Below are positions 10,656 through 40,759 of a stretch of 64,000 nt of DNA, piece after piece; position 1 is the first letter of the stretch, and the number at the start of each line of letters is the position of its first letter. The notes under the pieces are model-generated. The model was given only the letters and a program-made list of their open reading frames with translations. It was not told the DNA's origin and made no database searches. Origin of the DNA: Candidatus Omnitrophota bacterium (GTDB lineage: Bacteria; Omnitrophota; Gorgyraeia; Zapsychrales; Fredricksoniimonadaceae); the NCBI GenBank assembly GCA_015233675.1, contig JADFXH010000007.1, forward strand, positions 44,162 through 108,161, written 5' to 3'. A program made the translations under genes and the position numbers.

Positions 10656-12347
10656 ATGCTGAAAAAACACTTCCTGCTCTTAACTCTTTTGGCATCAGCT
10701 CTATTTTTCTTTTGTTCTCTGCATTATCAATACATCCTCTCTCAAGAAGATCACGGCCGCGACCTGTATACCTTTGCGCAAGTCTCACAGGGTAAACACA
10801 TCTACAAAGACATGTGGTGGGAGTATGGGCCGCTCATGCCCTACTATTACGCCCTGTTTGACATCCTGTTCGGATTAAAAATTTCCAGCGTACTTTTAGG
10901 CAAGGCGATCTTAAATATCTTTGGTTGCCTGTTTTTTTATCTGGCTTCCTGTGAGATAATGAGCACTCCCTGGGCTTTTCTATCAGCTTGCTTTTTCATG
11001 CTGCAACAGCATGACTTTTTTTATACCTATAATCATATCGGAGGCATTGCCCTATTCTTAATGCTTTTCTGGCAGATCTTGAAATATTTTCGAAATGGAG
11101 ATCAGAAAAATATTTTCTTAGCTCTTGGCAGTTGTTTATTGATCGGTTTTATCAAAATCAATTTTGGCATTAGCGCCCTGGCAGCAACTTTCCTATCTAT
11201 TATCATTATTGAAATTATCCATTCCCGTTTAAACAAAAAGAAACAAAGAACAAAACCTTTTTACCTCATCGGCCTCTTGATTGTACCGTTACTGTGGGGC
11301 ATCGTTTACTGTTTTATTCTTAATGGCTTAACGATCACCGAAATCAATCAATGCCTGCCTTATTTCGGAGACAATAAACCTATTATATCCACTCCCCTGC
11401 AAAGCATTAAGGGGTATTGGACACAAAATTACATATTTTTTCTAACTGATTGGTTATCTTTTCTGGAATCTTCGATTTTAATAACCCAAAATCCCACTCA
11501 ATTATTAAAGCCTTTTGTGCTCTTAACGTGTTCTATAGCTGTATTGAAACTATTTATTTATCCGTTAATTTTCGGGTCTATCATCAGCGCCTTTTGGATT
11601 TCTTTCACCAAGAAATTTAAAAGCAGACTCCTGGAATTCTGGCTGATCCAATCGGTTTTATGGCTCTTTATTGTCTTCAACCTTCACGAATATATTGTCA
11701 GCAATATTTGGTACAGGTCCTTTTGGTCACAGCCGTTTCTTTTATTCTTCTGCTTTTTTATGATCTCAACGGCCATATCCTTTGTCCCCAAATTCCGCTT
11801 CTTGGCTGGAGGGTTTTTCATTTCCCTTTTTATCCTCGTTACAATAAATGTTTGGATAGTTACGAAGAATTCCTGCACACCAGATAAATTCTTAAAAGCC
11901 ACAACCGGACAAATTTATGTCGGCAATGAATCAGGTTGGGTGTCTACATTTAACGAAGTCACCGATTATCTGAATAAAAATCTTAAAAAAGATGAACTAT
12001 TTTTTGCAATGCCTTGCGGCAGCCTTTTTTATTATCTGACAAATAAACCAAGCCCTAGCCGCCAGACCATCTTTTTTAATCTCTTCCATATCACGCCGCA
12101 ACAGGAACTTTCCGTTATTCGGGAATTGGAAAACAAAAAAGTCAACTATGTCCTGTTATCTAACCGCATAAAAACCAAATCGCCGGAATTGGGAGAATTT
12201 GGCAAGAGTTACTGCCGTCTCATCTATCAGTATGTCGGGAAGAATTTCATCCCTTTCTATAGTTATGGGGGCAACTGGAATATCCCTGCGGGGTGGGCCA
12301 ACAATCATGGGGTGATACTTTTAAAAAGGAAACCCGGGGCTTCCTAA
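10656..12347 (+). CDS. large polytopic membrane protein (ArnT/PMT-like glycosyltransferase fold suspected)
   Basis: 563 aa with at least 10 hydrophobic spans followed by a soluble C-terminal domain. This architecture resembles GT39/GT83-type lipid-linked sugar transferases. No catalytic motif was verified. Confidence 0.4.
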   Translation: MLKKHFLLLTLLASALFFFCSLHYQYILSQEDHGRDLYTFAQVSQGKHIYKDMWWEYGPLMPYYYALFDILFGLKISSVLLGKAILNIFGCLFFYLASCEIMSTPWAFLSACFFMLQQHDFFYTYNHIGGIALFLMLFWQILKYFRNGDQKNIFLALGSCLLIGFIKINFGISALAATFLSIIIIEIIHSRLNKKKQRTKPFYLIGLLIVPLLWGIVYCFILNGLTITEINQCLPYFGDNKPIISTPLQSIKGYWTQNYIFFLTDWLSFLESSILITQNPTQLLKPFVLLTCSIAVLKLFIYPLIFGSIISAFWISFTKKFKSRLLEFWLIQSVLWLFIVFNLHEYIVSNIWYRSFWSQPFLLFFCFFMISTAISFVPKFRFLAGGFFISLFILVTINVWIVTKNSCTPDKFLKATTGQIYVGNESGWVSTFNEVTDYLNKNLKKDELFFAMPCGSLFYYLTNKPSPSRQTIFFNLFHITPQQELSVIRELENKKVNYVLLSNRIKTKSPELGEFGKSYCRLIYQYVGKNFIPFYSYGGNWNIPAGWANNHGVILLKRKPGAS

Positions 12348-21744: not shown

Positions 21745-21956
21745 TATCCAATTCCCCTAAATAGACCACAGCATGCTTTGCAATATTTTACTCCTTATCC
21801 CCTTTCCTAGCAACATATATCACATTACGAAAGTGTCAATGCAAAACTGAAATTTCCTCGTTATAATGTCGGTTAAATAAAAATTAAATTAAATTTGACC
21901 CCGATACTACAAAGTATTAAGATGTAAAGACTTTTCAATTTATGAATGGAGGAAAT

Positions 21957-24356
21957 ATGAATAAAACGTGGAAATTTTTTAAACCCGGCTTTTTTTGTTT
22001 TATCGCGCTTTTTTTAGGGATCCCTGCAGTTTGGGCAGGAGAATCAGACCTGAAGGTTCCGGATCTATCCATCGTTCCCATGATCTTTAATTTAAACGGA
22101 CGGACAGCCTTAATGTTTGGCATTCTTATATGTGCTATGGGCGCTTTCTTTGGAATACGTCAGTATGGACAATTGAGAAAAATGCCCGTGCATAAAAGCA
22201 TGAAAGAAGTCTCTGAACTCATTTATACAACGTGCAAAGCGTATCTAATCGCGCAAGGCAAATTCTTACTCATCCTGGAAGCCCTGATCGGATTGGTCAT
22301 GGTGGCATATTTCGGTTGGCTGCGTCATTTTGAAGCCACCAAAGTCATTCTTATCCTAGTATGCAGTTTAATTGGTATCGCCGGAAGCTATGGCGTCGCG
22401 TGGTTCGGCATGAGAATTAATACATTTGCCAATTCACGCTGCGCTTTCGCAAGCCTTGCAGGTAAACCGTTCCCAGTTTACTCCATTCCTTTACAAGCGG
22501 GCATGAGCATCGGTATGCTGCTAATAAGCATTGAACTTTTTGTCATGTTATGCATTCTCTTATTTATTGACCCAAATTATGCAGGTCCATGCTTTATCGG
22601 TTTTGCTATCGGAGAATCTTTAGGCGCTTCAGTACTTAGAATTGCCGGTGGAATTTTCACCAAAATTGCCGACATAGGGTCAGACTTGATGAAAATCGTG
22701 TTTAATATTAAGGAAGACGACGCCCGCAATCCCGGGGTCATTGCGGATTGTGTTGGCGATAATGCCGGCGACTCTGTCGGCCCGACCGCAGATGGCTTTG
22801 AAACATACGGCGTCACAGGAGTCGCGTTGATTTCATTTATTCTTTTGGCAGTTAAACAGCCCTTTAATCAGGCACAGCTTTTAGTTTGGATTTTTTGCAT
22901 GCGCTTGATGATGGTCATTGCCAGCAGTCTTTCTTACTGGATCAACGATTATTTTGCCAAAAAACGTTATGCCAATGTTGAGAAGATGGACTTTGAAGAA
23001 CCCTTGACATCTCTGGTATGGATCACTTCCTTTATATCCATCATCCTGACCTACGGGGCTTCCTATCTCATCATTCCAAATTTAGGTGACGGCACATTTT
23101 GGTGGAAGCTTGCCTCCATCATTACCTGCGGCACAATAGCAGGCGCAGTCATTCCGGAGGGAGTAAAAATATTCACCTCCATGAATTCGGATTTCGTGAA
23201 GAACATCTATGAATGCTCTAAAAAAGGCGGAGCTTCCCTCAATATTCTCTCTGGTCTTGTAGCCGGAAATTTTAGCGCTTATTGGATGGGATTAGTCATT
23301 ACTGTATTGATGGGATTGGCCTATTTCTTTAGCTTAATGGGTATCCATACACTCATGATCGCCCCAGCAGTGTTTGCTTTTGGACTGGTGGCTTTTGGGT
23401 TCTTGAGCATGGGACCGGTTACCATTGCCGTTGATTCCTACGGACCGGTTTCCGACAACGCTCAATCCATTTATGAGCTCTCTCTTATTGAGACCCTTCC
23501 CAATATTAAAGAAGAGATCAAGAAAGATTTTGGCTTTACGCCAAATTTCGAACTTGCCAAACATCATTTGGAGACCAATGATGGGGCAGGCAACACCTTC
23601 AAAGCCACCTCCAAACCGGTTTTGATAGGAACTGCTGTGGTCGGCGCAACCACTATGATCTTTTCTATTATAATGATTTTAACCCACGGTCTTACCATTA
23701 ATATGGCAAACCTCTCTATACTTTATCCTCCCTTCCTGCTTGGACTCCTAAGCGGCGGTGGCGTAATCTATTGGTTTACAGGGGCTTCCATTCAGGCTGT
23801 GACCGCAGGGGCCTATCACACCGTAGAATACATCAAAGAGCATATTAAACTTGAAAGCACAGAAAAATCTTCTACTAAAGACAGCACGAAGGTCGTGGAA
23901 ATTTGTACGATGTTTGCCCAAAAAGGCATGATCAATATTTTCGTGACGGTACTTTTTATGACACTTGCTTTTGCCTGCTTACAGCCCTATTTCTTTATCG
24001 GGTATTTGATCTCGATAGCCATCTTTGGCCTTTTTCAGGCTATTTTCATGGCGAACGCCGGCGGAGCGTGGGACAATGCCAAAAAGCTGGTGGAAGTGAC
24101 TTATCATGAAAAGGGAACAGAAATTCATGCGACAACGGTCGTCGGAGATACGGTAGGAGATCCTTTTAAGGACACCTCATCGGTTGCCATTAACCCGATC
24201 ATTAAATTCACAACCTTGTTTGGATTATTGGCCATTGAAATTGCTATTGGATTAAGCCGGAGCCTTGATATTCTCCTGGCCGTTATCTTTTTTGCCATTG
24301 CCGTGTTCTTTTTGATCCGTTCTTTTTACGAAATGCGTATTTCAACCAAAGTTTAA
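21957..24356 (+). CDS. hppA: membrane-bound proton/sodium-translocating pyrophosphatase
   Basis: GDNAGDSVGPTADGFETYGVTG, DSYGPVSDNA and GDTVGDPFKDTSS signatures. The ATG at 21957 is preceded by GGAGGA; the track start at 21942 is upstream. Confidence 0.9.
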   Translation: MNKTWKFFKPGFFCFIALFLGIPAVWAGESDLKVPDLSIVPMIFNLNGRTALMFGILICAMGAFFGIRQYGQLRKMPVHKSMKEVSELIYTTCKAYLIAQGKFLLILEALIGLVMVAYFGWLRHFEATKVILILVCSLIGIAGSYGVAWFGMRINTFANSRCAFASLAGKPFPVYSIPLQAGMSIGMLLISIELFVMLCILLFIDPNYAGPCFIGFAIGESLGASVLRIAGGIFTKIADIGSDLMKIVFNIKEDDARNPGVIADCVGDNAGDSVGPTADGFETYGVTGVALISFILLAVKQPFNQAQLLVWIFCMRLMMVIASSLSYWINDYFAKKRYANVEKMDFEEPLTSLVWITSFISIILTYGASYLIIPNLGDGTFWWKLASIITCGTIAGAVIPEGVKIFTSMNSDFVKNIYECSKKGGASLNILSGLVAGNFSAYWMGLVITVLMGLAYFFSLMGIHTLMIAPAVFAFGLVAFGFLSMGPVTIAVDSYGPVSDNAQSIYELSLIETLPNIKEEIKKDFGFTPNFELAKHHLETNDGAGNTFKATSKPVLIGTAVVGATTMIFSIIMILTHGLTINMANLSILYPPFLLGLLSGGGVIYWFTGASIQAVTAGAYHTVEYIKEHIKLESTEKSSTKDSTKVVEICTMFAQKGMINIFVTVLFMTLAFACLQPYFFIGYLISIAIFGLFQAIFMANAGGAWDNAKKLVEVTYHEKGTEIHATTVVGDTVGDPFKDTSSVAINPIIKFTTLFGLLAIEIAIGLSRSLDILLAVIFFAIAVFFLIRSFYEMRISTKV

Positions 24357-27051: not shown

Positions 27052-30000
27052 CTATCGACTGCATGCCCATTTAAGGATTTGCTCTTTGAGTTTATTGTGG
27101 TTCATCGGTTTGGTCAGGAAATCATTCATGCCGCTTTTCAGGGATTTTTCATGGTCTTCTTTCATTACCGCCGCCGTAAGGGCAATGATCGGAATATCCT
27201 TATTGACTTCTCTTCGAATAATTTCCGTAGCTTCTAGTCCGCCCATCACAGGCATTTGTATGTCCATTAGACATATATCATAAGAGTTTTGTCTTATCAT
27301 CTCAATTGCTTCCCGGCCGTTATTAGCATAATCACTGACACAGCCAAACATGTCCAGATACACCTTCATTAATTTCTGGTTAGGCGTTTGGTCTTCGACA
27401 ACAAGCACCCTTATGCCTTTTAAAGACAACTCCCCGACGGTATGACGGGTTATGATATCTTTTTCTATCCTTTTATCTCCCATCACAGCTTGTATTATTT
27501 TAATCAACTCATGCCTAAGTACCGGTTTTGACAAATAAGCGTCAAATCCTGCCTGCTGGGCTTCTTCCGAAGTGCCGGGCCTTACATCTGATGTGGCAGC
27601 GATAAATTTTATACAGCCATACTTTTCTTCTTCCCGTAAACGTTTAATTAATGTCATGCCATCCATTTCCGGCATCATGATATCCGATATAATGATCTCA
27701 GGTAAATCCTGTTGTCCGCTTATCCATGATAATAATTTCAAAGCACGGTCTCCAGTATAAATAACTTCCATACCGATATCTTTACAATATCTCTCAATAA
27801 GCTTTAGCCCATGTTCATTATCGTCGACAATGGCGACCTTCTTGCCTTTAAGGCTCATCATGTTAACCAATGAAATATCTGTTTGTCTCAGGGGTTTCCC
27901 TGTTTCCAGATGTAATGTGACTATAAACTCACTGCCGCGGCCAAGTTCCGAGAGAACCTCAATATCTCCTCCCATTTTTCGCGCCAGGGCCAAAGCGATA
28001 GAAAGACCTAATCCCGTTCCCCCGAATTTCCTTGTCGTTGAACTATCGGCTTGAGTAAATAATTCAAATATCGCCGATCGTTTATCCGCAGGAATGCCTA
28101 TCCCCGTGTCTTTCACTGAGATCTTAACCGTCCGAAAACTGCCGACCTGGGTTGAAGTCTCAGGTGATGAGACAGTGACTTTTATTTCGCCTTGTTCGGT
28201 AAATTTAACGGCATTGCTCAACAAATTTAGGATGATCTGGCGAACTCTTGTGGGGTCCCCCATAAAGAATGCCGGTGTGCCGGCTTGAAATTCAAACAAA
28301 AGATCAACATCTTTATTCATGGCTTTTACCGCTGTTATTTTTAATAAATTTCCTACCAAATATTCCAAATCAAAAGAAATTTTCTCAAACTTAACACTAT
28401 TGGCCTCAATCTTGGAAATATCAAGGATATCGCTGATAAGAGCCAGAAGGATGTCTCCGCTGCTTTTGATGGTATAAACATAATCTTTCTGCACTTCATT
28501 AAGCGGGGTGCCTTCCAAAAGATCGGAGAAGCCGATGATGGCGTTCATGGGCGTGCGTATTTCATGAGACATATTGGCCAAAAATTCACTTTTAGCCTTG
28601 TTGGCCGCATCAGCAATATTCTTTGCCTGGATCAGCTCCTGCTCTTGCTTTTTACGTACGGTAATATCAACGATGGCAAGCAAAACATGTTTCTCGTTGT
28701 CAATAAACACAGGCGCCGCATTAATGCTTAACCATACAGATACTTTTTTCTGATTTATAAAAAGTTCTTTTGGGGTTTCAATGCCATCAATTATTTGCTC
28801 CGTGGCCAAGGCCTGCTCAAAAAGATTACGGATAGCGCAAACCTTGCAAGCCGGAGTTTCACCACAACGTTGATTAGTAGTCAATGGATTGATACAACAA
28901 ATCGCCTCTCCGGGCCTTTCCAATAAAATATCACCCGCATTACGCCCGACCATGGCTGCTAAAATATTATTGACACGTTTGACAACGCCTTTCGAATCAA
29001 TAAGGATAAGGCCTACCTGAGATGAATCAAATATTGTCTGGAGATTGGTTTTTTCCTTTTCCAACAGTATCAAGCTCTCCTTTAAATCTTTTGTCTTTAT
29101 CCTCACAAGATTTTCAGCCCGAAAACGCTGGGTTACCATGGAATTCAAAAATGCAGCAATCAATGCTGTCAAAAAAATCCCCATAGGCAATACCGCCCAA
29201 TATCCATTGGATAAATTTTCTTCAATAAATGCCGAGCCCGGAACAATAGTGATCCGCCATTGACGATCAGGCATTTTCAGGATGGTTTGATATTTCAAAA
29301 AAGGATGGCCCCAATCAACCCTTCCCTTCCTCAGGACATGTCGATACAAAACACGATCCTGCGCAGGTGCCGTCATATCTTCGACAAGAAAAGACAGTCC
29401 TTCCGGCGGAGATTTTGAATAGGCCGCTTTAAGAAATTCATTTGTATTATAGACCCCAAGAACAAAACCCCGCAAGCTCTTGCGCCGCTCCTCAACGGTA
29501 TTCTTCGGCATATCCATGTCATACACAGGATAAAAAACCAATACCCCATTTTTCTTTGAAGATCCAAACAATTGAATCGGCGCTGTGGCCACCGGACGCC
29601 CCTCATCACGGCTTTTTTCTATGGTCAAACGCCTAAGCGTTTCAGAAGACAAATCAAACCCCAGAGCGGCCTTATTAACTTCAAAGGGCTGTACATAATA
29701 AACAGGAAAATACTCGTCCCGATCATGAACGGGGATCTTTTTGCCAAGAACATCCTTCTCATAAAGCTTAAAATTGTTTTCGACATAACTATTGGAGCTC
29801 TCATAAGAAGATAAATTCTCACGAGTGACACGCGGTATCCATGCTATGGCACGAATCGGCGCCTCTTCTAAAAATGGAGCAGTATATTGATTAAATTCCC
29901 TTAACCTCACGTTAGATCTGATGGCTTCCAAAAAACGCCGCAACCCGTCTAAGTTATCAAGCTGATGCCCCAACTCCAAAAAAACATTTTGAGCCCTGCT

Positions 30001-31497
30001 GACAGCTCGCTGCATAAAGGCCGTTTGGAAGCGGTCCCACGCGGTATTTTGCAGCTGCAAAAAAAGCCCTGCAGTGATCAAAGATCCAAATACTACTACT
30101 ATTACCGCTATCCCCCAACGCAGAGTGATGGGCATCTTTTTATCTTCAAGGGCCTGCTGCAGGGCCACATAAAACCTTCGCCAATAAGTAAATATACAAA
30201 GCACCATCAAACAGATAAATCCGACAATGAGGATAGACTTCAACCGGTTGTGGGCCACCGCATAACTAAAATCATGCGCGTTCTGGTCTATACCAAGTAC
30301 CCCGATCAGCTTTCCCGTACGGTAATCATTCAAAGGCGAAAATACTGATATCCAACTGCCCCACCTATCAGTGTAGGGCACCCCAACAATACTCTTTGAG
30401 GAGTCAAACACATCATAAACCGCTCGAGGAACTTCATCGTACACCTGTCCGGCAGGAGACTCGTCCTTACTGCCGATTGGTTCAGAATCGACAAGAAAGA
30501 CTATTTTCCCGCCTGCCTTACGCATAAGATAAATAAACCGAATGTGAGTCATGGCCTTGCGCAGGTTCTGAAGCTGGTCTTTCAATGCCCGATACGCCAA
30601 AGTGTTAACATCAGATGCCGAGCCAGTCAACTTCCTGACCAATGCATCGTCCATTACTGAAGTTACCTGTTGTGAAATATTTAAAAGCCTCGCACGCTGA
30701 AAATCTTTCTCATTAATCCCTGCCTTATCTGTGCAAAACCATCCCAAAGCAAGTATCAATATCATCGCAAGAAGAACCCCCGCCCCAAGTCTTTTTTGGT
30801 TATGAGCCATCTGAACATCAAGCTTTTCTATATAAATTTCTTCCTGATAATGCCAGATCATAAAAGCGATCACACCCGCAGCAAAACAACGCAAAAGTTG
30901 AACAGGAAATCCGGTAATAGTAAAAAATAAATCCTGATTGACTGTCAAAAAAGATAACTGCTCCGACTTAGGCAGAAAAAAACCAGCTAACGGGGCATAC
31001 ACAGCCATAGCAAATGCCGCAATGACCATGCTGCGAGCTCCCTGCTTGCTTTCTCTTGAAATCCTCCAGAATGCAAGGGCTGTCAGAAGCCCCCCGAAGA
31101 ATCCAAAAGAACAACGGATACACGCGTTCACTTGTGATACTCCGGCCCAAGTACCTAAGACTACCGCTAGAGATAGCGGAATATAGAACCATCGTCCTAT
31201 CCTGACATATTTAAACCGTTCGCATGTTAAGCGGCCAAATTCAAAAAGACAAATGAATGAAGCGGCCAATGAAATAATGAGAACCCGTTTAAAAAAGCCA
31301 TTATTGCCAAGGCTGATCACCAGCATGGACAGCCATTCATTGATTCCGTGGATCAACCCGAAAAGCCCCAGCCAATGCCAGGGAATCATGGACTCACGAC
31401 GTTTGGGAAAGGAAAAACATATCAAAAATAGTACAGTAAAGGCGAGGCTGTATACAAAAAAAATATAGTCCATCTGACTAGAAAAAAATTCACGCAT
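27052..31497 (-). CDS. multi-sensor hybrid histidine kinase (membrane sensor modules, CHASE-like domain, Cys-rich PAS, HisKA, HATPase, two receivers)
   Basis: 1481 aa. Contains N-terminal multi-TM and periplasmic modules, H-box [21 protein letters not shown], the G-boxes DTGIGIP and GGTGLGLSI, and two receivers ([12 protein letters not shown] and [11 protein letters not shown]). Confidence 0.85.
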
Positions 31498-31551: not shown

Positions 31552-31974
31552 TTATCCTGAAATTTGAGACAAGAAGCCTTTTTCTTTGAAGTATAAGCTG
31601 TATTGCTGATCCATATTGACCATATGATTATCAAGCCAGCTCGATAAAAAGGCAACCAGCTCCTGCGGCAAGGCTTTATTCCCTGAATTGAATTCTTCCC
31701 AAAACTCCAGCACTTTGGAGGTACAATTGCGGTGTTCCTTTGTATGCATCTCATAGCCGGGATAGGAAAACCTGATCATGAGGATCTCTTCAGTCGAGAA
31801 ATGTGCCCCAACATATTTTACAAGAGCTTCAAAAGTACTCGTAAGGACGCCTTTTTCGCAGCCCAGTTGTACGGCATTATCTAAAACATTCAGGGCCTCT
31901 AGGATCTCCTGATGCTGCGCATCAATGACTTTAATGTGCACGCTCATCTGCGATCCCCAGACAAGTTTGGGCAT
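31552..31974 (-). CDS. bacteriohemerythrin-like protein
   Basis: 140 aa. IDAQHQEILEALN, HFSTEE, HTKEH and the NHMVNMD His/Glu/Asp ligand pattern are those of hemerythrin-like metal-binding domains. Confidence 0.75.
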   Translation of the reverse strand: MPKLVWGSQMSVHIKVIDAQHQEILEALNVLDNAVQLGCEKGVLTSTFEALVKYVGAHFSTEEILMIRFSYPGYEMHTKEHRNCTSKVLEFWEEFNSGNKALPQELVAFLSSWLDNHMVNMDQQYSLYFKEKGFLSQISG

Positions 31975-32000: not shown

Positions 32001-32666
32001 TCATTCCAAATCGATCATTTGAGTATTGCCCACATAATCAACACGTTTGAGCTGCTGCAGGGCATCGATCTTCTTGAGAATAGCAGTGACCTTGCTTAGT
32101 TCATTTTTTATTTTTGACAATGTCAAATGCTTTTTGTCCTTTGGGTCATTTTGAGACAAAAGGATTTCAAGATAGGTGATCGCCGCCATTAATGGTTGAT
32201 TCATATTATGGTTATACGTCACCACCATATTCTTAACTGTCTCGAGATTTGTAATTTGAATTTTTTCTTCTTCAGCCCTTTTGATGCGCAGATGGGCCTT
32301 CACCCGGGTTTTGACTTCTTCGGGATTTATAGGTTTACTAATATAATCAGCCGCTCCTACAGAAAAACATTTAACCATGTCTTCAGGCTTATTCATTGCG
32401 GTAATAAAAAGTATCGGGATAGACTGATGTTTTTCATGCTTCTTAAGCCTTTGGCAAACCTCAAAGCCGTCTATATCCGGCATGATGACATCAAGCAGTA
32501 TAATATCCGGCTTTTCACGCTCCACAGCATCGAGAGCAGCACGGCCGGAATCAGCTTGCACAACTTTATACCCCTCGTCAGCCTGTAAAAGCAGCATTGA
32601 TAAAAGCTCACGGTTCGTCTTTTTATCATCTACAACAAGTATTTTCGAGGTTACTCTTTCCGTCAT
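32001..32666 (-). CDS. receiver domain fused to an H-box/dimerisation-like domain without ATPase domain
   Basis: ILVVDDKKTNRELL ... ILLDVIMPDIDGFE receiver, then YNHNMNQPLMAAITYLEIL. The latter parallels the H-box [20 protein letters not shown] of the kinase at 33224-34390. No N/G boxes follow. Confidence 0.65.
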   Translation of the reverse strand: MTERVTSKILVVDDKKTNRELLSMLLLQADEGYKVVQADSGRAALDAVEREKPDIILLDVIMPDIDGFEVCQRLKKHEKHQSIPILFITAMNKPEDMVKCFSVGAADYISKPINPEEVKTRVKAHLRIKRAEEEKIQITNLETVKNMVVTYNHNMNQPLMAAITYLEILLSQNDPKDKKHLTLSKIKNELSKVTAILKKIDALQQLKRVDYVGNTQMIDLE

Positions 32667-33205
32667 TTCTTTTTATCCCATTTTTTGACGATCGCGCTGA
32701 TCTTGTCCTGCACCTTGCTTTTGATCTCAATATCACTAAGAATAGAGTTCAGCAACTCCTCGTGTTCTTCGGCCATACGCAGGATATCCAGTTTTAATTC
32801 TTCGTTATACCTTTCCAAACGGAAACGTTCAATCGCATGCTTCAAAGGAAGAAGCACCTTATCTTTATCCTCAATGGGTTTAAGGATGTAATCAAAAGCT
32901 CCTTCTCTTAGGGCGTCCTGACAGGTTTCCATCGTGCCGAATCCTGTTAAGAAAATCACAGGGATTTCTTTTTTCCTTAAATTAAGATATCTTAGTAATT
33001 CTATCCCCATTTTACCGGGCATTTTAAGATCACTGATAATAGCTTCAATATCTCTTTTTAATTCAACGACCTTAATAGCATTATCAACGCAATCCGCTAT
33101 GTACACCTGAAAACCTAATGCTTCCAGGAGTTCTTGAAGCGATTCTCTGATGGCTTCTTCATCATCCACTACTAAAACACAACCTTGTTTTTCCTTTGTT
33201 GCCAT
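32663..33205 (-). CDS. response regulator (receiver plus short helical C-terminal tail)
   Basis: VLVVDDEEAIRESL ... IISDLKMPGKMG ... FLTGFG ... KP. It has a 4-nt overlap with the next gene. Confidence 0.75.
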   Translation of the reverse strand: MATKEKQGCVLVVDDEEAIRESLQELLEALGFQVYIADCVDNAIKVVELKRDIEAIISDLKMPGKMGIELLRYLNLRKKEIPVIFLTGFGTMETCQDALREGAFDYILKPIEDKDKVLLPLKHAIERFRLERYNEELKLDILRMAEEHEELLNSILSDIEIKSKVQDKISAIVKKWDKKK

Positions 33206-33223
33206 GGTCTGCCTCCGGTTAAT

Positions 33224-34390
33224 TTACAAATTTTCCAATTCAGCTTTTAGCTCTTTATTTAATGCCTCAACACCGGCCAAATCCTGTTCTTTATCAAGAG
33301 GAAGCACAAAATAAAAAATCTTTCGCTCATTCTTTAAAGATGAAAACCCGATTACCCCTTTATGGCTTTTTATAATGGTAAAAGAAACGGAAAGACCAAG
33401 GCCGGTCCCTTTACCCGGGGCCTTAGTGGTAAAAAAGGGCTCAAAAAGATTCTCCTCTGATCCGCTTTTGACCGCTATCCCATTATCAATAACACCGGAG
33501 ACAATTGCGGGGAAGTTCTTCAATTTTTTAGAAATAAACCAGATGTGGCCGCCTTCCTGTTGATTAAATTTCTCATCAATGGCATCACGGGCATTGATCA
33601 GGAAATTAACCACCACATCCTGGATCTGGTAGCGGTCAATATAAACCTCAGGGAGGTCTTCTTGCAGTTGTAATTCCACGGCAATATTGTGGTCCTTGAA
33701 CTGTTGCGTCAAAAGAAAAAGTCCGTCAGTGATCGGGCGTTTGACGTCCCCTTCGGTAAAGGTGCCCATACGGCTACCGGAATATTCATGCATCCGCTTA
33801 ACGATAGTGCCAAGCCTGACAAACTGGTCCTTGATCTTGAGCATCTTGTTTTTCAGCACCAAATTTGTCACGAGAGCATCATTCATCAAGAGTCCCTCGA
33901 GATAGGATGATATGGCCATCAAAGGCTGGTTCATTTCATGGGCAACACCGGCACCCAATTCCCCCATCGCGGTCAATTTCGCAGCCCGTAAAAGCTGTGT
34001 CTGTTGGATTTTTAACTGCAGGTACAATCTTTGATTTTCCGCGGCCCGGTTGATATTCATACACAGTTCTTCTAAATTAAAAGGTTTAATAATATAATCA
34101 AAAGCCCCTTTTTTTAATGAGGCAATAGCGCTTTCCATGTCCCCATGCCCTGTCAGCATAATCACCTGCGCCTCGGCGTTCATGAGTTTAACTTTTTCCA
34201 GCATTTCCATGCCATCCATGCCGGGCATCGAAATATCGCAAATGATCACTTCCGGTTTCTCTTTGACAAAAGCTTCCAGGCCTTGCTCGCCGCTTGAGGC
34301 AACAAAAACCTCATAGTTCTTGAGTTCCAAGCTGCTTTTGAGCATCTTGCGCTGTATTTCTTCATCATCTACAATCAATATTTTTATCAT
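33224..34390 (-). CDS. receiver-histidine kinase fusion (REC-HisKA-HATPase)
   Basis: [14 protein letters not shown] ... [12 protein letters not shown] receiver, H-box [11 protein letters not shown]-box NARDAI and G-box GKGTGLGLS. Confidence 0.85.
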
Positions 34391-34413: not shown

Positions 34414-36027
34414 TCAGGATTTTTCAACGAAGGCGCGTTGTAAATTTTCAAAATTAATTTTTACCTGAAAATATAATTTCTTGATCTCTTCAATACTCCC
34501 TTTCTCTCTTGCCAGATTGTTTATCTCTGCGGCAGGCGTCGACACCGAAGTCAGCCTCAAATTAGAAAAAACCCCCTTTAGTATGTGCGAAGTTTGATCG
34601 ATATGAGTAAAATCATTTTCTACAATCGCTTTTTCTAAATTAGCAACGTCTGCACTTCCTTCCTCCACAGCCCCCCGCGCTATTTTTAAGTAAATATCTA
34701 GGGGGCATTGCAATTCTTTAGAATTTTGCTGGACCATTTCTTCAAACGAATTGATGTTGTTTTCATTGTTCATAGTTTCCCCTTCGCTAACCCCTCCCGC
34801 CAAGGGGAGGGAATCTAATTTGTTATTGCCCCCTCTCTCCAGGGGCGTAGAATTTAATGAACTATTGCCCCCCCCCACCAAAGGTGTGGAATTTAATGAG
34901 CTATTATGGTCTTTCTCAAGTTCAAGAGCCTTGATCTGCAGGGCCTTGATCTGGTCCTCATATTTCTGGATCATCTGGTCCATATGAATGGATTTGCGGA
35001 ATTCCTCAAACTCCTTGCCTTGGGCAAACTGCGCTATCGACTCAACCGCGCCTTTTGTCTTTTCATCGATAAGCTCAAGTTTCATCTTGCCTTCTTGGAT
35101 ACGCAATTTGATCTTGTGCAGTTCTTTCTTTTCTTCATCCATCAGCTTTTCAATATGAAACATTTCAATCTCTGATTTTTTGAAACGGGCCATACGTTCG
35201 CTTGTATCCTTCTGTGCGAGCGTCATGCGCTCGATCTGGTCAGTAAGACGCTTAATCACACTTTCCTTAACTGCGAGTTCTTCATTATTTTGCGGTACGT
35301 TCTTGCCCTGTTGCTCCATCATTGACAGCTGGGCCTTGAGCTTCACGAGCTCTTGCTCTTTCTGGCCGGACTCGGTTGCTTTTGTCTCAAGCTCAGCTTT
35401 AAGATTCTTAACTTCACTCAGAAGACGATTGATCTCGGTTTCCTTGACTGCGATTTCTTCAGTTTTTTGTAAGGCGCTCTTGCTTTCTTCTCCTAATCTT
35501 ATCAGCTCAACCTTGAGCTTCACAATCTCCTGTTCTTTCAAAGTGAATTCGTTCGCCTTGCCCTGGAGTTTTACTTTAAGACTCTCCACTTCACTGAGCA
35601 GGACCCTGTTCTCGCTTTCCTTATGCGCAAGCTCTTCACTGTTTTGAGAAACGTTTTTACCCTGTTCCTCCATTTTTGCCAACTGGACCTTGAGTTTCGT
35701 AAGCTCTAGTTCTTTCTGGGAGGACTCAGTCGCCTTTGACTCGAATTCTTCTTTAATCCTGCGCACTTCACCGACCAAATCCCGAAGATCATTATTTTTT
35801 GAAAGCAATTCTTCATTTTTTCGTGAGGTCTCAGCTTGCAATCTGTCGGATTCTTCTTTTATTTGTTCCAGCTCTTTCTTAAATTTCTCTGGAGCGGTTT
35901 CCGCAAAACTCAACTGCTCCTTTAATATTTTGATCTGCTTGTTTAATTTTGCGTCCTCATTAATGATATAAATGACAACACCGATAGCAACCACAGCACA
36001 CGTTATTGAAAAAATTATTAGGATCAT
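34414..36027 (-). CDS. membrane-anchored long coiled-coil protein with C-terminal HPt (histidine phosphotransfer) domain
   Basis: 537 aa. Contains an N-terminal TM (ILIIFSITCAVVAIGVVIYII), about 340 residues of heptad-rich E/K/L/Q sequence with about 59-aa internal repeats, and a C-terminal SHILKGVFSNLRL HPt signature. It has a 4-nt overlap with the upstream gene. Confidence 0.7.
   Translation of the reverse strand: MILIIFSITCAVVAIGVVIYIINEDAKLNKQIKILKEQLSFAETAPEKFKKELEQIKEESDRLQAETSRKNEELLSKNNDLRDLVGEVRRIKEEFESKATESSQKELELTKLKVQLAKMEEQGKNVSQNSEELAHKESENRVLLSEVESLKVKLQGKANEFTLKEQEIVKLKVELIRLGEESKSALQKTEEIAVKETEINRLLSEVKNLKAELETKATESGQKEQELVKLKAQLSMMEQQGKNVPQNNEELAVKESVIKRLTDQIERMTLAQKDTSERMARFKKSEIEMFHIEKLMDEEKKELHKIKLRIQEGKMKLELIDEKTKGAVESIAQFAQGKEFEEFRKSIHMDQMIQKYEDQIKALQIKALELEKDHNSSLNSTPLVGGGNSSLNSTPLERGGNNKLDSLPLAGGVSEGETMNNENNINSFEEMVQQNSKELQCPLDIYLKIARGAVEEGSADVANLEKAIVENDFTHIDQTSHILKGVFSNLRLTSVSTPAAEINNLAREKGSIEEIKKLYFQVKINFENLQRAFVEKS
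34788..34904. repeat. three tandem 39-bp units of a hairpin repeat, in-frame inside the HPt gene
   Basis: The units at 34788-34826, 34827-34865 and 34866-34904 each have the form C-rich arm / G-rich arm / GAAT(C/T)TAAT. Unit A forms a 7-bp GC hairpin (34792-34811). They translate as SLNSTPLVGGGNS / SLNSTPLERGGNN / KLDSLPLAGGVSE. Confidence 0.8.
35224..35739. repeat. about 177-bp (59-aa) tandem coding repeats, ~3 copies, in the coiled-coil region
   Basis: Protein-level repeats are KATESSQKELELTKLKVQLAKMEEQGKNVSQNSEELAHKESENRVLLSEVESLKVKLQG, KANEFTLKEQEIVKLKVELIRLGEESKSALQKTEEIAVKETEINRLLSEVKNLKAELET and KATESGQKEQELVKLKAQLSMMEQQGKNVPQNNEELAVKESVIKRL. Confidence 0.75.
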
Positions 36028-36644
36028 GCCTTTTCTCCACCAGGCTTAGGTTTTAAGCCCTTTAGCCTGCGAAGTTTTTCAAGTGTCGAATCGATCCCCT
36101 TGGATTCCTTCTCTTCAACGCCGATATCTTCAAGATTGCTTTGGACCTCTTGGTGAACATAAAGCTTGGAAAGATCAATCGACTCAAATTCGGCTGCTTC
36201 TTTAAGCTCCTGTAGCTTGTACTCGCGGGCAGGGCCGCTGAGACCTTTGAGCTCCTTTAGCATACCTGCAATCTTGTCGGAAAGCTTCTCCGATACAGCA
36301 TCGAGGGAACCTTGAAGGATCGCCCCCATATGCGTCTTAAATTCCTCGAGCGTCATGCCAGCTTGCCCCGCTGCAGGAGATGCTACAAGCGGCGCCGGCG
36401 GGACCGATAACGGGACAGCAGGGACCGGCGGCTCTGGTAGCACAGTTCTGGGCTCCTGTATCCTATTTTTCACCCGGGCCGTCACCACATCCATAGAACC
36501 CACAAATTCACCCAGCAGTAATTCCATCTCCATGAGCTCATCATTAAGCTCCTTACGTGACTGCTGAGTGGCATTGATCCTTTGAAATAATCTTGGGACC
36601 AAAACCTCGGGATCATCTATGGTATTTGTATCTTCAGGGCTCAT
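36024..36644 (-). CDS. hypothetical protein with central proline-rich linker (cluster-specific)
   Basis: 206 aa with LPEPPVPAVPLSVPPAPLVASPAAG between two helical segments. It has 4-nt overlaps at both ends, with the actin-like gene upstream and the HPt gene downstream. Confidence 0.5.
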   Translation of the reverse strand: MSPEDTNTIDDPEVLVPRLFQRINATQQSRKELNDELMEMELLLGEFVGSMDVVTARVKNRIQEPRTVLPEPPVPAVPLSVPPAPLVASPAAGQAGMTLEEFKTHMGAILQGSLDAVSEKLSDKIAGMLKELKGLSGPAREYKLQELKEAAEFESIDLSKLYVHQEVQSNLEDIGVEEKESKGIDSTLEKLRRLKGLKPKPGGEKA

Positions 36645-38032
36645 TGGCTCCCACCATTAATTGCATTAAACAAACATCCGCGCACAACACTGGTAAAAGG
36701 CTCCTTGGCGTGAAGGATATTCCCCACGGGAAATCCGAATTTAACCGATTTAATCTCCTCTTGGACGACATCAATAAAACCTGGCACCATGGATGATCCG
36801 CCTGCAAAAACGATATCAGCCGGCTCTTTAAAATGGGGAGTATCCGTGCTTTTGCCAAAGACACGGGCCATGTTCTCAATAAGATAATGGATATAATTAC
36901 GGTAATAGATCGCGATCGCTTCTTCTTCGCGGTTGGCGGGGATCTTGATACTCATGCCATGTTCCTTGATAGTTGAGACACGGGTCGTAGGGACACCAAG
37001 GACAGTCGCCGCGCTTTTATCGATCCAGTCACCGCCGCGCGTGATCGAAAACGACAGCACAGGCACAGACTTAAACGCGGCACATATATTGACCATGCCG
37101 GCCCCACAGGAAATGCCGATACCCGTAAAATCCTGATCTTCCATCTCGGAAAGGACAACGGCATATCCTTCGTCGATAACTAAAGGCTTAAAACCGATAT
37201 TCTTTAGGATCCCTTCAAAAACACCACGGTGGTAGATCGTATCCTGGTCGCGGTCAAGAGGTTTAGCGGGTACTGAAAAACAACAAACCTCGCCTTTTTC
37301 GCGAGGCTCCCATAAAATATTTTTCACTAAAAGCTGGATGATCGGGATAGACTCGGCTTCAGAAGGGTTTAATATCCCCATGTTCATGGACCGTTGTGTT
37401 TCCCGCCCGAAAATGTCCGCAAGCTCCAAAGCCATGCCACCTAAAACATAAAGTTTGTCCTGCAGGGCAACATATTTGATCTTAAGGCGTGTTAACAAAT
37501 CCTTGGTCGATTGATCACAACGCACGGAAAGAAAGGCATTGCGTTCATTCTTCACAAATACCCGTTTGTCCTCAACCTCACGGCTTGCGACAATATAGGC
37601 TGTTCCCAAGTCCAGGCCGACGCCTGTCCTGACCGCAGCGTTCCTGCCGCGGCTCAGCGCCGGAAGTACAACCGTAGTGGTTTCTTCTTCTTTGACAGGA
37701 ACCGGTTCTTGCTCTTCGCCCACCTCCTCGACCGTCTCCTCTTCCATGACAAATGCAAGCTTCTCGACAGGTGGAGGGGGAAGCTCTTCCCTTAGAAAAA
37801 CAGGCGGCTTGACGTCGCGGCCCATGGCGCGAGCACGAATATATTCGTTAATGGCGCGCAGTTTCGCGCGCATTTCGTCAACGGGAATTTCCTGGTCCCC
37901 ACGAAGTCTTTGAGGTTTAATTTCTTTTTCGTTAGAAAACTGCGGGCTCTTGCTTAGGTTGGAATAACTCTTTATCTTATCATTTATCTTTAATAATCGC
38001 TTTCTGATATCCTGCAATTCCTCATCGACCAC
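36641..38032 (-). CDS. actin-like ATPase (MamK/Mad28/MreB superfamily) with ~140-aa N-terminal extension
   Basis: GTG start at 38032 with AGAGG 7 nt upstream. Actin-fold motifs are GVGLDLGTAYIV (phosphate 1), FTGIGISCGAGMVNI (phosphate 2) and IVFAGGSSMVPGF (adenosine). It is a clear paralogue of 38134-39123. Confidence 0.7.
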   Translation of the reverse strand: MVDEELQDIRKRLLKINDKIKSYSNLSKSPQFSNEKEIKPQRLRGDQEIPVDEMRAKLRAINEYIRARAMGRDVKPPVFLREELPPPPVEKLAFVMEEETVEEVGEEQEPVPVKEEETTTVVLPALSRGRNAAVRTGVGLDLGTAYIVASREVEDKRVFVKNERNAFLSVRCDQSTKDLLTRLKIKYVALQDKLYVLGGMALELADIFGRETQRSMNMGILNPSEAESIPIIQLLVKNILWEPREKGEVCCFSVPAKPLDRDQDTIYHRGVFEGILKNIGFKPLVIDEGYAVVLSEMEDQDFTGIGISCGAGMVNICAAFKSVPVLSFSITRGGDWIDKSAATVLGVPTTRVSTIKEHGMSIKIPANREEEAIAIYYRNYIHYLIENMARVFGKSTDTPHFKEPADIVFAGGSSMVPGFIDVVQEEIKSVKFGFPVGNILHAKEPFTSVVRGCLFNAINGGSQ

Positions 38033-38133: not shown

Positions 38134-39123
38134 CTATTCTACCTCGCTTAAGCCCGCCAGGAGGCATCCTCTTGCGGTCGCGTACAACGGCTCATCGGCA
38201 AGCCTTACAGTATTGATCGGTATGGGGAAAGACAATTTCTTTAATTCTTCCTTAAAGACATCAACAAACCCGCCGATCATTGAGGAGCCTCCGGCACACA
38301 CAATATCAATGGGTTCCGGGAATTGCGGCATCTGTTCGGCTTTCTCAAATTTATTCTTGATATTGACCAGCGTATAATTAATCAGATTGCGATAATAGAT
38401 ACAGACCGCTTCTTCTTCGCGATTGGCGGGCTTGTTAATATTGATCCCTTTTTCCTTGATGGCGGTCGCCCGGTTGACCTTGATACCGAGAACTTGGGCC
38501 ACATTCTTGTCGATCCAGTCACCCGCTCGGCTCGTCGCAAAACTGATGGCAGGGATCGTCTTATAAGCAACACAAATATTAAACATACCGCCGCCGGCAG
38601 AAATACCGATACCGGTAAAATCCTTGTCTCCTAATTCCGCAAACACCACCGCATGGCCCTCATTCATGGGCTTACCGGTATATCCTAAATTCTTAAGCGC
38701 CCCGGCAATTACGCTTGAGTGGTAAACAATATTGAAGTTCGCATCAACAGGGTCAGCGGGAACGGAATAATAACAAAGCTGTCCTTTTTCATCAGGTTTT
38801 CCAAGGACCGCGTCGATCAAAAGCCCAAAAATGGGAACCGCATCCGCTTCACCGGGACTCATGACGCCATCCTGCATAGGCCGGCGCACGGTTTTATTCA
38901 TGATATTAGCAAGCTCAAAAGCAGAATCACCGAGGATATAAACCTTATTACCCATTTCGGCATATTGTACTTTTTGCTTTTTCAGCATGCTCTTGGTAAA
39001 CGAATTCGCTTCAATATCCAAGAACGTATGGCGCATCAGCTTCAACTTGATCTTGCCGTCTGCTCCCTGTTCAGAGCCAACCAGGTTCATTGTTCCGACG
39101 TCTAATCCCTTAACTTTTCCCAT
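38134..39123 (-). CDS. actin-like ATPase (MamK/Mad28/MreB superfamily)
   Basis: The start was moved to the ATG at 39121-39123 (AGGAG 8 nt upstream). Motifs are VKGLDVGTMNLV, RRPMQDGVM, FTGIGISAGGGMFNI and IVCAGGSSMIGGF. The track extension to 39186 covers a hairpin. Confidence 0.7.
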   Translation of the reverse strand: MGKVKGLDVGTMNLVGSEQGADGKIKLKLMRHTFLDIEANSFTKSMLKKQKVQYAEMGNKVYILGDSAFELANIMNKTVRRPMQDGVMSPGEADAVPIFGLLIDAVLGKPDEKGQLCYYSVPADPVDANFNIVYHSSVIAGALKNLGYTGKPMNEGHAVVFAELGDKDFTGIGISAGGGMFNICVAYKTIPAISFATSRAGDWIDKNVAQVLGIKVNRATAIKEKGININKPANREEEAVCIYYRNLINYTLVNIKNKFEKAEQMPQFPEPIDIVCAGGSSMIGGFVDVFKEELKKLSFPIPINTVRLADEPLYATARGCLLAGLSEVE

Positions 39124-39158
39124 ACGAAAAACTCCTTTTTTAACGCCCCCACCTAAGC

Positions 39159-39176
39159 GCCTGCCTGCTGGCAGGC
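39159..39176. repeat. intercistronic GC hairpin
   Basis: GCCTGCC-TGCT-GGCAGGC, a 7-bp stem with a 4-nt loop, lies between the coiled-coil gene stop (39211) and the actin-like gene start (39123). Confidence 0.5.
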
Positions 39177-39210
39177 TTCTCCCCATCAGTGAGGAGGAAT
39201 AATAGGATTC

Positions 39211-40023
39211 CTATTTATGTTTAGCTTTATAGTAATGTTCTCTGGCACGAGCCCTGGTATCAGCAAGCATCAGACGAATCTCATCAAGGCTCTCCTTGCT
39301 GCGCTCAAGTTCACGGCTGGCCTGGTCTCTTTCAGCAATGATACTGCCAAGTTGGGTTTCCGCCGCATCAAGTTTCCCTGAAATGGATTCTTTCTCATCC
39401 TCCAAAAGCGAAACCTGATGGTGCAGGCTCTGGATCGTCTTGTTAGCGCTCGAAAGCTCAAGCTCAATTTGTTCGATCCTGGTATCACGGGCTTCGCACT
39501 CTTTCTCAAGAGCCGCCATCTTGTTTGTCTGGTCCTTGATGACTGCTTCCCTGCCCTCAAGTTCTTCTTCCACAGACTTCATTTTTCCGACTGACTCAAG
39601 CCGTTCATTTTCAAGAAACTCGAGCTCGGAATTAAGCTCTTCCTGAGAAACCAGCAAACCTTTCATCTCTTTTAACTTTGCCTCGGCGATGGCCGCCTTT
39701 TCTTCCGCCTTTTGGCAACGCTCTTTTAAATTATTAATATCCTTTTCCTGGGCATCCTTAAGACTAAATGAAGCATCCAACTGCTTCTCTAGGTCTCCAA
39801 TGATTTCAAAAACGCTGACCTTCTCCTCCTCGGGAGACATGATATATTTTGTCGAATCCTTAATCTGCCTGACCGCAGAACGGATGGCCGCCTTTGATTC
39901 TGAGGACGTCGTTGCCGGCCTTTGGATCGCTGGCTTTATTGTTGACTGAAGAAGCGGATTATCTATGAGCTTGCTTTTTCTTGAATCCATGCCCCTGTTA
40001 GCTAACTTTTCTTGTTTTTCCAT
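39211..40023 (-). CDS. coiled-coil protein (cluster-specific)
   Basis: 270 aa, of which about 190 residues are E/K/L/Q-rich heptad sequence. Strong RBS AAGGAGA lies 6 nt before the ATG at 40023. It overlaps the ParA-like gene end by 26 nt. Confidence 0.55.
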   Translation of the reverse strand: MEKQEKLANRGMDSRKSKLIDNPLLQSTIKPAIQRPATTSSESKAAIRSAVRQIKDSTKYIMSPEEEKVSVFEIIGDLEKQLDASFSLKDAQEKDINNLKERCQKAEEKAAIAEAKLKEMKGLLVSQEELNSELEFLENERLESVGKMKSVEEELEGREAVIKDQTNKMAALEKECEARDTRIEQIELELSSANKTIQSLHHQVSLLEDEKESISGKLDAAETQLGSIIAERDQASRELERSKESLDEIRLMLADTRARAREHYYKAKHK

Positions 40024-40759
40024 TCAGGATCTCCTTTGCTAATTGACGGTAAGCCTCCGCCCCTTTGGAAGTCTTGTCATACTTATATATAGGAAGGTGG
40101 GCATTATGGGCTTCTTCTATCTTGATATTCTCCGGGATCACGGCCTTAAAAACCTTCTTGCCAAAATAATTCCTGATGGCGTCACGAGCCTCATTGGTCA
40201 CAACACGCTCGCGGTATCGGGTGATCACGACCCCGGTTATCTCAATATCGGAACCAAGTCCATGGCGGACATTCTCAACAATTTCTTCTAAAAGCTTGAT
40301 CCCTTTCAGGGAAAAAAATTCAGGGCAAATAGGCACAACAAGTTCATGACAAGCCGTCAGGGCATTGACAGTCAAAAGCCCCAAAGACGGCGGAGCGTCA
40401 ACAATCATAAAATCATACTTGAGCTTCTGCGTATAATGGTACAGCACTTTTTCGCGGCCGATATGCTCGTTAATCCGCAAAGTGGCGCCTGAGAGTTCAA
40501 TATCACTAGGCACGACGTCAATCCCAAAAGCATCGGAATGCTGGACGACGGTACGGATATCCATCTTATCGACAATGACATTATAAATATTAAATTCAAA
40601 ACGCTGGTTACCGAAGATGGCCGCCGTGGAAGAATACTGAGGGTCCATGTCAATTAAAATAACCTTTTTACCCGCCCGCGCAAGTTCAGCGGCCAGATTC
40701 AATGAAGTTGTGGTCTTGGCAACGCCGCCTTTTTGATTAGCGACACAGATTTTTCTCAT
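39998..40759 (-). CDS. ParA/MinD-family P-loop ATPase
   Basis: Deviant Walker A ANQKGGVAKTTTS with the signature lysine, IDMDPQ, and Walker B-like FMIVDAPPSLG. Confidence 0.85.
   Translation of the reverse strand: MRKICVANQKGGVAKTTTSLNLAAELARAGKKVILIDMDPQYSSTAAIFGNQRFEFNIYNVIVDKMDIRTVVQHSDAFGIDVVPSDIELSGATLRINEHIGREKVLYHYTQKLKYDFMIVDAPPSLGLLTVNALTACHELVVPICPEFFSLKGIKLLEEIVENVRHGLGSDIEITGVVITRYRERVVTNEARDAIRNYFGKKVFKAVIPENIKIEEAHNAHLPIYKYDKTSKGAEAYRQLAKEILNGKTRKVS

Follow-up and report, generated by a model that had tools for sequence, protein, structure and literature searches.

A probable gene fusion joins a membrane-anchored coiled-coil protein to a histidine phosphotransfer domain in a magnetosome gene cluster of an Omnitrophota bacterium

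The gene described here lies on the minus strand of a 64,000-nt stretch of DNA from Candidatus Omnitrophota bacterium (assembly GCA_015233675.1, contig JADFXH010000007.1, positions 44,162-108,161; hereafter the window, in whose own numbering positions are given unless a related locus is named), and encodes a 537-residue protein with an N-terminal transmembrane helix, a long coiled coil and a C-terminal histidine phosphotransfer (HPt) domain. The gene is probably a fusion of two units that are separate and adjacent in related genomes, by which the HPt step of a neighbouring phosphorelay would be tethered to a membrane-anchored coiled-coil protein. The domain itself is an ordinary HPt domain and the novelty lies in the fused architecture, which, judged by the sequences compared, is young and limited to one small Omnitrophota clade. 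The analysis was purely computational, comprising profile searches, AlphaFold2 (AF2) predictions, Foldseek, synteny and sequence comparison, and it partly confirms the observations, and partly supports the interpretation, of an initial annotation of the window made from the letters and their open reading frames (ORFs).

Two units that are separate genes in related genomes

The focal protein (P0001) is 100% identical to the NCBI entry 'hypothetical protein HQL12_06140 [Candidatus Omnitrophica bacterium]'. Its parts, all on the minus strand, are listed below; related loci carry L numbers and family proteins P numbers.

36027-34414, minus strand (that is, 34414-36027): the focal ORF, with transmembrane helix, coiled coil, conserved core, linker and HPt unit; 537 aa, ATG start
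35959-36024, minus strand: N-terminal transmembrane anchor, residues 2-23 (hydropathy; the same hydrophobic stretch is present in most full-length relatives)
35233-35958, minus strand: variable coiled-coil region, residues 24-265 (AF2 helix, heptad periodicity)
35209-35739, minus strand: three 59-aa tandem repeats, residues 97-273 (self-comparison at offset 59)
34903-35232, minus strand: conserved core of the family (residues 266-375), predicted as two long helices, at which relatives normally end (profile, AF2)
34774-34902, minus strand: linker, residues 376-418, read as a translated former intergenic spacer (AF2, comparison with L005)
34789-34905, minus strand: three 39-nt (13-aa) tandem units (Tandem Repeats Finder (TRF), alignment)
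34868-34876, minus strand: G9 homopolymer (C9 on the plus strand) in the linker, the longest G/C run in the 64-kb window
34771-34784, minus strand: Shine-Dalgarno-like AAGGGG (34779-34784) with the ATG of Met419 (34771-34773), the putative start of the ancestral free HPt gene
34417-34773, minus strand: HPt unit, residues 419-537 (Pfam, AF2, Foldseek)
34585-34587, minus strand: CAC codon of His481, the predicted phospho-accepting histidine in H-x-x-K-G (HMMER alignment)

The separate state is seen most directly in L005 (metagenome-assembled genome (MAG) nDJH2bin13), where the coiled-coil homolog is 270 aa long and ends in ...LELEKKP followed by a TAA stop codon, and where a separate gene for a 120-aa HPt protein begins 12 nt after this stop. 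The free HPt protein of L005 is 49% identical to residues 419-533 of the focal protein, with its Met1 aligned to Met419. A free HPt gene is also found directly downstream of the homolog in L019 (107 aa, 47.2 bits against Pfam Hpt) and directly follows the homolog in L024, and free-standing HPt genes of 107-120 aa are thus present in three other lineages. The only other fused protein is P0002, in L001. Taken together, the alignment of Met1 with Met419, the AAGGGG motif common to L005 and the adjacency of the free genes point to a gene fusion across a former spacer. The identities of neighbouring genes rank the fused locus L001 as closest to the window (95% for ParA, 95% and 84% for the two actin-like proteins), followed by L005 (94%, and 91% and 75%, respectively). 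This distribution therefore requires no more than one fusion, in an ancestor shared by the window and L001.

In the history that we propose, a first unit (residues 1-375), a membrane-anchored coiled coil ending in the conserved core, and a second unit (residues 419-537), the small HPt protein of the two-component genes that follow, would have been joined when the stop codon of the first fell out of frame, before the window and L001 diverged; the G-rich spacer would have turned into a disordered linker, later tripled here as 39-nt units. An origin of the HPt unit as the leftover of a deleted hybrid kinase was also considered and was ruled out, as no HPt is present in the sensor kinases encoded after the homolog in L002 and L004.

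At L005, the 270-aa coiled-coil gene (2023-2828) and the second actin-like gene (4050-5465) are each split into two ORFs. These split ORFs are probably frameshift errors or pseudogenes, the contig having about 3x coverage according to its record. The free HPt gene of the same locus has a clean stop, spacer and start, and is backed by those of L019 and L024.

The C-terminal domain

By profile, motif and predicted fold, the C-terminal domain is assigned as a genuine HPt domain, as the initial annotation had proposed; the refuting outcome that the annotation had named for this domain, no match to HPt profiles or no four-helix bundle in predictions, did not occur. Pfam Hpt (PF01627) matches residues 454-530 with 26.9 bits, above the cut-off of 24.6, a cut-off that is also passed by the corresponding units of relatives (41.6 bits for L001 and 27.7 for L005, in addition to the L019 value given above). 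The unit is modeled by AF2 as helices at residues 428-438, 443-469, 473-489, 493-507 and 512-536, with pLDDT values of 88-97 when the family alignment is supplied and of 76-90 from the single sequence. In a Foldseek comparison with the PDB, all top matches of this model are HPt proteins, the best being HptB (7c1i, TM-score 0.78, rmsd 2.5 Å) and a Shewanella HPT protein (3myf, TM-score 0.79, rmsd 1.9 Å), with Ypd1, plant AHPs, BarA and ArcB among the further matches; the Foldseek E-values are modest (0.004-0.02). A search of PDB sequences ranks the HPt domain of RcsD/YojN first (1sr2, E 0.005-0.009), with the alignment spanning H-x-x-K-G.

The HPt signature SHILKGVFSNLRL and the histidine codon at 34585-34587, both reported in the initial annotation, are present in the focal gene, and the segment His481-I-L-K-G sits in the helix formed by residues 473-489. 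HMMER pairs His481 with the histidine of AHRLKGVF in the RcsD/YojN domain. The histidine, the lysine at +3 and the glycine at +4 do not vary among the window, L001 and L005, and L019, with its canonical HEIKGSSGNL, keeps them as well. A word-index homolog search with the HPt unit alone gave no matches, and an HPt-based scan of metagenome contigs likewise turned up no relatives.

It is conceivable, if improbable, that the C-terminal bundle is a degenerate HPt domain that has lost phosphotransfer and serves as a mere protein-binding module. The Pfam score is barely over the cut-off, and the window, L001 and L005 have G-V-F in place of the G-S-S usual after K-G; against this stand the unchanging histidine, lysine and glycine of these three units, the presence of the same residues in L019, and the fact that receiver-domain genes always adjoin.

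The coiled-coil family and its conserved core

The first unit belongs to an unnamed family that, from the profile searches, is almost purely Omnitrophota. The family is defined by a core of about 105 aa (consensus ...FAQGKEFEEFRKSIHMD...YEDEIK...), the profile of which finds 54 clusters among 1.84 billion representative proteins and 16 loci in GTDB species genomes, nearly all labelled Candidatus Omnitrophota. P0001 matches the core profile with 158.8 bits (E 3e-42), a value to be read in the light of the underlying alignment (A1), which contains P0001's own core. With an alignment supplied, AF2 models the core as two long helices (pLDDT 85-98). The core matches no Pfam family, and among PDB sequences it finds only weak coiled-coil matches (YbgF, E 0.02). 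Core identity is 79% between the window and each of L001 and L005.

In most full-length members a hydrophobic N-terminal helix leads into a coiled coil of about 100-800 aa, and the protein closes with the core; the repeats and the length of the coiled coil differ by lineage. Among the 57 family sequences collected, 54 have no more than 15 residues after the core; an HPt tail is found in two only, namely P0001 (a tail of 163 aa, linker plus HPt) and P0002 (141 aa), and the third exception, P0049, carries a long tail of repeated partial cores. The focal protein has the core, the N-terminal transmembrane helix with coiled coil, and the position after the ParA/actin set that characterize the family, but its core is not at the extreme C-terminus, which marks the derived, fused state. 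The combination of transmembrane helix, coiled coil and HPt had been called unusual in the initial annotation. Its rarity stands, with two of 57 sequences. The combination is not a conserved design, the HPt being a separate gene in L005, L019 and L024.

Several further observations of the initial annotation were borne out for the N-terminal part of the protein. A transmembrane helix is indicated by a mean Kyte-Doolittle hydropathy of 2.97 over residues 1-19. AF2 predicts a near-continuous helix over residues 2-378, and the hydrophobic residues recur with periods of 3.5 and 2.35, which are heptad harmonics, most strongly in residues 21-132 and 189-244; the long coiled coil that had been proposed is thus helical with heptad periodicity for about 350 residues. 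The three heptad-rich 59-aa repeats are also recovered, with 23-33 identities of 59 between copies and an identity of 0.43 at offset 59, a value that none of 2000 shuffled sequences reached (maximum 0.25). The coiled-coil region is only 39% identical to that of the closest relative, as against 79% for the core.

Distant members of the family are found outside magnetosome clusters, at L021 (2134-3944), L006 (7337-10787), L003 and L017. At L021 the family gene is still preceded by a relative of the ~200-aa protein that precedes it in the window, and at L006 by a gene for an MshEN-domain protein. The pair of ~200-aa protein and coiled-coil protein may be a general membrane or cytoskeletal module of Omnitrophota that was recruited to the magnetosome cluster.

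The linker and the internal start

Between the core and the HPt unit lies a low-complexity segment of about 45 residues (43 by coordinates) that is unstructured in the AF2 model (pLDDT <50), in place of which L005 has TAA and 12 nt. The HPt domain is thus predicted to hang on a flexible tether, the spacer being disordered in the model rather than rigid, and the rigid spacer envisaged in the initial annotation is contradicted at this point. Frame 0 is the sole open frame across the linker.

TRF reports 2.1 copies of a 39-nt period (34824-34905), after which comes a more diverged third unit. The initial annotation had described three 13-aa units derived from a DNA hairpin repeat; the three units are there, but the hairpin origin is not supported, since folding of the unit region equals that of dinucleotide shuffles (z = 0.11) and no further copies of the 39-nt unit or of its best stem-loop were found elsewhere in the window. 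The units look, from their sequence, like a tandem triplication within the former intergenic spacer.

The G9 tract of the linker has a counterpart in L001, a G10 tract in the same relative place (11080-11089 of that locus) that is the sole G/C run of at least 8 in the 21-kb locus. Gain or loss of one G would give a product of 388-390 aa here and of 364-390 aa in L001, which restores roughly the ancestral, core-terminated form. In the window, L001 and L005 alike, AAGGGG is found 5-7 nt before the aligned ATG, and the methionine at the aligned position is kept in both fused genes. With the methionine retained and the Shine-Dalgarno-like motif as in L005, a free HPt protein may still be made.

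The upstream neighbourhood

The genes upstream of the focal gene are as follows.

36024-36644, minus strand: 206-aa Pro-rich ORF, a conserved partner gene that matches no Pfam family
36641-38032, minus strand: 463-aa actin-like protein, Pfam Volactin type (PF25216, 273.7 bits)
38134-39186, minus strand: 350-aa actin-like protein, Pfam Volactin type (PF25216)
39211-40023, minus strand: 270-aa coiled-coil protein
39998-40759, minus strand: ParA/MinD-type ATPase

The focal start codon ATG and the TGA of the Pro-rich ORF overlap by 4 nt, and the Pro-rich ORF in turn overlaps the 463-aa actin-like ORF by 4 nt, which bears out the chain of overlapping starts and stops noted in the initial annotation. 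The setting beside two actin-like genes was likewise correctly described, and is a tightly packed same-strand run inside a real magnetosome cluster. By its gene content the window is identified as a true magnetosome gene cluster, in that the region upstream encodes magnetochrome proteins, two CDF transporters, TPR, LemA and trypsin-PDZ proteins, together with FeoB, DtxR-FeoA, FecR and three HEAT-repeat proteins.

Both actin-like proteins score about 270 bits against Volactin, an archaeal actin family, and 24-29 bits against NCBIfam MamK (23.7 bits for the 463-aa protein), for which the cut-off is 400; on these profile scores they are of the Volactin type rather than canonical MamK. No canonical MamK was found among the window ORFs scanned, which were a subset of all ORFs. 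The volactin paper makes no mention of MamK, Mad28 or magnetosomes, and the 2025 Mad28 paper (PMC12748827) makes no mention of volactin.

In Omnitrophota magnetosome clusters the family gene always follows the set of ParA, coiled-coil protein, two Volactin-type actins and ~200-aa protein, and this gene order is found in at least 10 further distinct loci. A promoter and terminator scan gave counts near chance, with no terminator on the minus strand between the genes. Co-transcription is suggested only by the overlaps, the short gaps and the conserved synteny.

The downstream signalling genes

The genes that follow the focal gene share its strand, are separated by -4 to 54 nt and include several that encode proteins with receiver (REC) domains.

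33224-34390, minus strand: REC-HisKA-HATPase kinase, 388 aa, 23 nt downstream of the focal gene, conserved in most related loci
32663-33205, minus strand: response regulator, REC with helical tail, 180 aa
32001-32666, minus strand: REC with a DHp-like (HisKA) domain but no ATPase domain, 221 aa (REC221)
31552-31974, minus strand: hemerythrin-domain protein
27052-31497, minus strand: CHASE hybrid histidine kinase, 1481 aa, with two REC domains and no HPt domain of its own; candidate phosphodonor

REC-kinase and REC genes are found downstream in most related loci, and a homolog of REC221 comes after the free HPt gene in both L005 and L019. The hybrid kinase that L005 carries after HPt and REC221 shares 45% identity with the C-terminal half of the CHASE kinase, and hybrid kinases with two REC domains and no HPt occur in both the window and L005.

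At L019 (7513-9039), the REC221 homolog is continuous with the HisKA-HATPase part in one 508-aa protein, which on sequence comparison represents a second gene fusion or fission in the same signalling module. At L002 (11128-16943) and L004 (11450-16910), both of which are without HPt, two large PAS/dCache sensors stand between the coiled-coil and REC-kinase genes, and three of these four sensors have histidine-kinase domains; the inserted sensors imply that the input side of the module has been swapped between lineages. The hemerythrin gene lies between the receiver genes and the hybrid kinase region in the window and in L001, and its product may feed an O2, iron or redox signal into the relay. 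The signalling genes are flanked by those of a 1661-aa PAS/GAF/GGDEF/EAL protein (16759-21744) and an H+-pyrophosphatase (21942-24356). In L001 the pyrophosphatase directly follows the hemerythrin, from which it follows that the two closest genomes differ by insertion or deletion of the hybrid kinase region (24.5-31.5 kb).

Proposed mechanism and alternative explanations

In the mechanism that we envisage, His481 would be phosphorylated by a receiver domain, the likeliest being either of the pair in the CHASE kinase, and would then hand the phosphate to a receiver protein encoded within 32001-34390, a candidate acceptor being REC221, the follower of the free HPt gene in L005 and L019. The fusion would tether and concentrate phosphotransfer at the membrane-anchored coiled-coil protein, and so probably at the binding partner of the core, which by position could be the actin-like proteins or the ~200-aa protein. 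The domain identities, the family architecture, the synteny and the fused and separate states described above are direct observations, whereas phosphotransfer, the partners, the effect of tethering and a link to the magnetosome chain are inferred. The fusion and the conserved adjacency hint that a signalling module is linked with the cytoskeletal genes of the magnetosome cluster. That the protein is placed along the magnetosome chain is conjecture, because distant family members lie outside magnetosome clusters.

Several observations weigh against a functional tethering of the relay. All of the genomes involved are MAGs of uncultured bacteria, and the fused frame hangs on a mutationally unstable G9 tract (G10 in L001). 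With Met419 and AAGGGG retained, the HPt may mostly be produced as a free protein. The L001 locus is without a hybrid kinase, which makes the phosphodonor uncertain, distant family members occur outside magnetosome clusters, and much of the synteny could be shared ancestry within one clade rather than selection.

The retained start signals are central to a different reading, in which the DNA does carry the fusion but the fused protein is not the principal functional form: the HPt protein would for the most part be made free from Met419 by way of the retained Shine-Dalgarno-like site, and the long ORF would be tolerated read-through or would be turned on and off by slippage of the G9/G10 tract. 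We consider this possible, yet doubtful. It is in keeping with the constancy of AAGGGG and its distance from the ATG in the window, L001 and L005 despite divergence of the rest of the linker, with the singular length and matching place of the G tracts in the two fused loci, and with the near-ancestral architecture that a change of a single G would yield in either. Both MAG consensuses are nevertheless in frame despite linkers of different length (43 versus ~24 aa) and sequence, which suggests that the frame is kept, and the Shine-Dalgarno-like motif is possibly a leftover that also encodes E-G. The same tract and the 39-nt tandem repeat, both of them error-prone in assembly, raise the question of whether the fused ORF is an assembly or sequencing artefact and the true state is two genes as in L005, where the split genes show how variable MAG quality can be. 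An assembly artefact is unlikely, and indeed the least probable of the explanations considered: in-frame fusions are present in two independent MAGs from different bins, the ancestral stop codon is gone upstream of the G tract in both (here ten sense codons stand between core and tract), and the record of the L001 contig gives it about 49x coverage.

The interpretation offered in the initial annotation, that a rigid coiled coil holds the HPt domain at a fixed distance from the membrane along a chain or filament, is also improbable. The transmembrane anchor, the ~350 helical residues with heptad periodicity, and the overlap and co-location with actin-like genes in a magnetosome cluster are all compatible with it. 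The HPt domain, however, hangs on a disordered linker of ~45 aa; the coiled coil ranges from ~100 to ~800 aa in the family, 54 of 57 members of which have no appended domain; the HPt is a separate gene in three lineages; and family members also occur outside magnetosome clusters. A bolder extension of the probable fusion reading would have the phosphorelay physically attached to the actin-like module, with the G9/G10 tract acting as a slipped-strand switch between tethered and free HPt, in which case signalling may control the assembly or positioning of the chain or may read its state; this extension is speculative and, as a whole, rather unlikely to hold.

Comparison with known systems

Multi-step phosphorelays pass phosphate from a hybrid kinase to an HPt domain and on to a response regulator, as in ArcB, BarA and Sln1-Ypd1-Ssk1. 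The present locus resembles them in holding a hybrid kinase without HPt, an HPt domain and several receiver proteins, and differs in that the focal HPt is neither free nor fused to a kinase and that one receiver protein lacks an ATPase domain beside its DHp-like domain. Free HPt proteins such as HptB of Pseudomonas aeruginosa (7c1i) are comparable in providing the best structural match and in resembling the ancestral protein of ~110-120 aa encoded beside hybrid kinases and receivers; in contrast to HptB, the focal HPt is joined to a 418-aa membrane-anchored coiled-coil part, and sequence identity between the two is only ~17-20%.

A closer architectural parallel is RcsD (YojN, 1sr2), which is membrane-anchored, is without kinase activity, ends in an HPt domain and gives the best PDB-sequence match. 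RcsD has a periplasmic domain and a degenerate kinase core ahead of its HPt domain, whereas the focal protein has one transmembrane helix and a coiled coil; a Pfam and NCBIfam scan of the 537-aa protein found no RcsD-like degenerate HisKA/HATPase core.

Among magnetosome proteins, the coiled-coil proteins Mad20, Mad25 and Mad26 and the actin-like Mad28 and MamK are reported to organize the chain and to interact with one another (Russell et al., 2025; PMC12748827), and the coiled-coil magnetosome proteins of strain RS-1 are described in the same paper as being without a transmembrane domain, with no mention of HPt (PMC12748827). The focal protein is similar to the Mad coiled-coil proteins in being encoded beside actin-like genes in a magnetosome cluster of a deep-branching phylum, and dissimilar in its transmembrane anchor and HPt domain, a comparison made with the Mad proteins by description only; no database source labels any member of the present family as Mad. 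In Nitrospirota, the order mad28, mad29, hypothetical gene has been reported (bioRxiv 10.1101/2022.03.28.486042). This order resembles the focal one and is offered as a lead only.

HPt, histidine kinase or response regulator genes are not described as parts of magnetosome clusters in the literature searched. In the Omnitrophota loci, two-component genes come consistently after the actin-like module, and in one clade the HPt step is joined to the coiled-coil protein of that module. If this link is functional, it supplies a concrete gene set for tying organelle positioning to signal transduction in a deep-branching, uncultured phylum; if it is merely one of neighbourhood, the gene is an ordinary lineage-specific fusion. 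In either case the gene offers what appears to be a clean and datable case of a new domain architecture, in which a stop codon was lost and a spacer was translated and then tandemly expanded.

Rosetta-stone fusions, in which the proteins of adjacent genes occur as one polypeptide elsewhere, are usually read as signs of a functional or physical link. The present case corresponds to them in that genes adjacent in L005, L019 and L024 are joined in the window and L001, and departs from them in its recent origin, in its restriction to one small clade and in the retained signals for an internal start.

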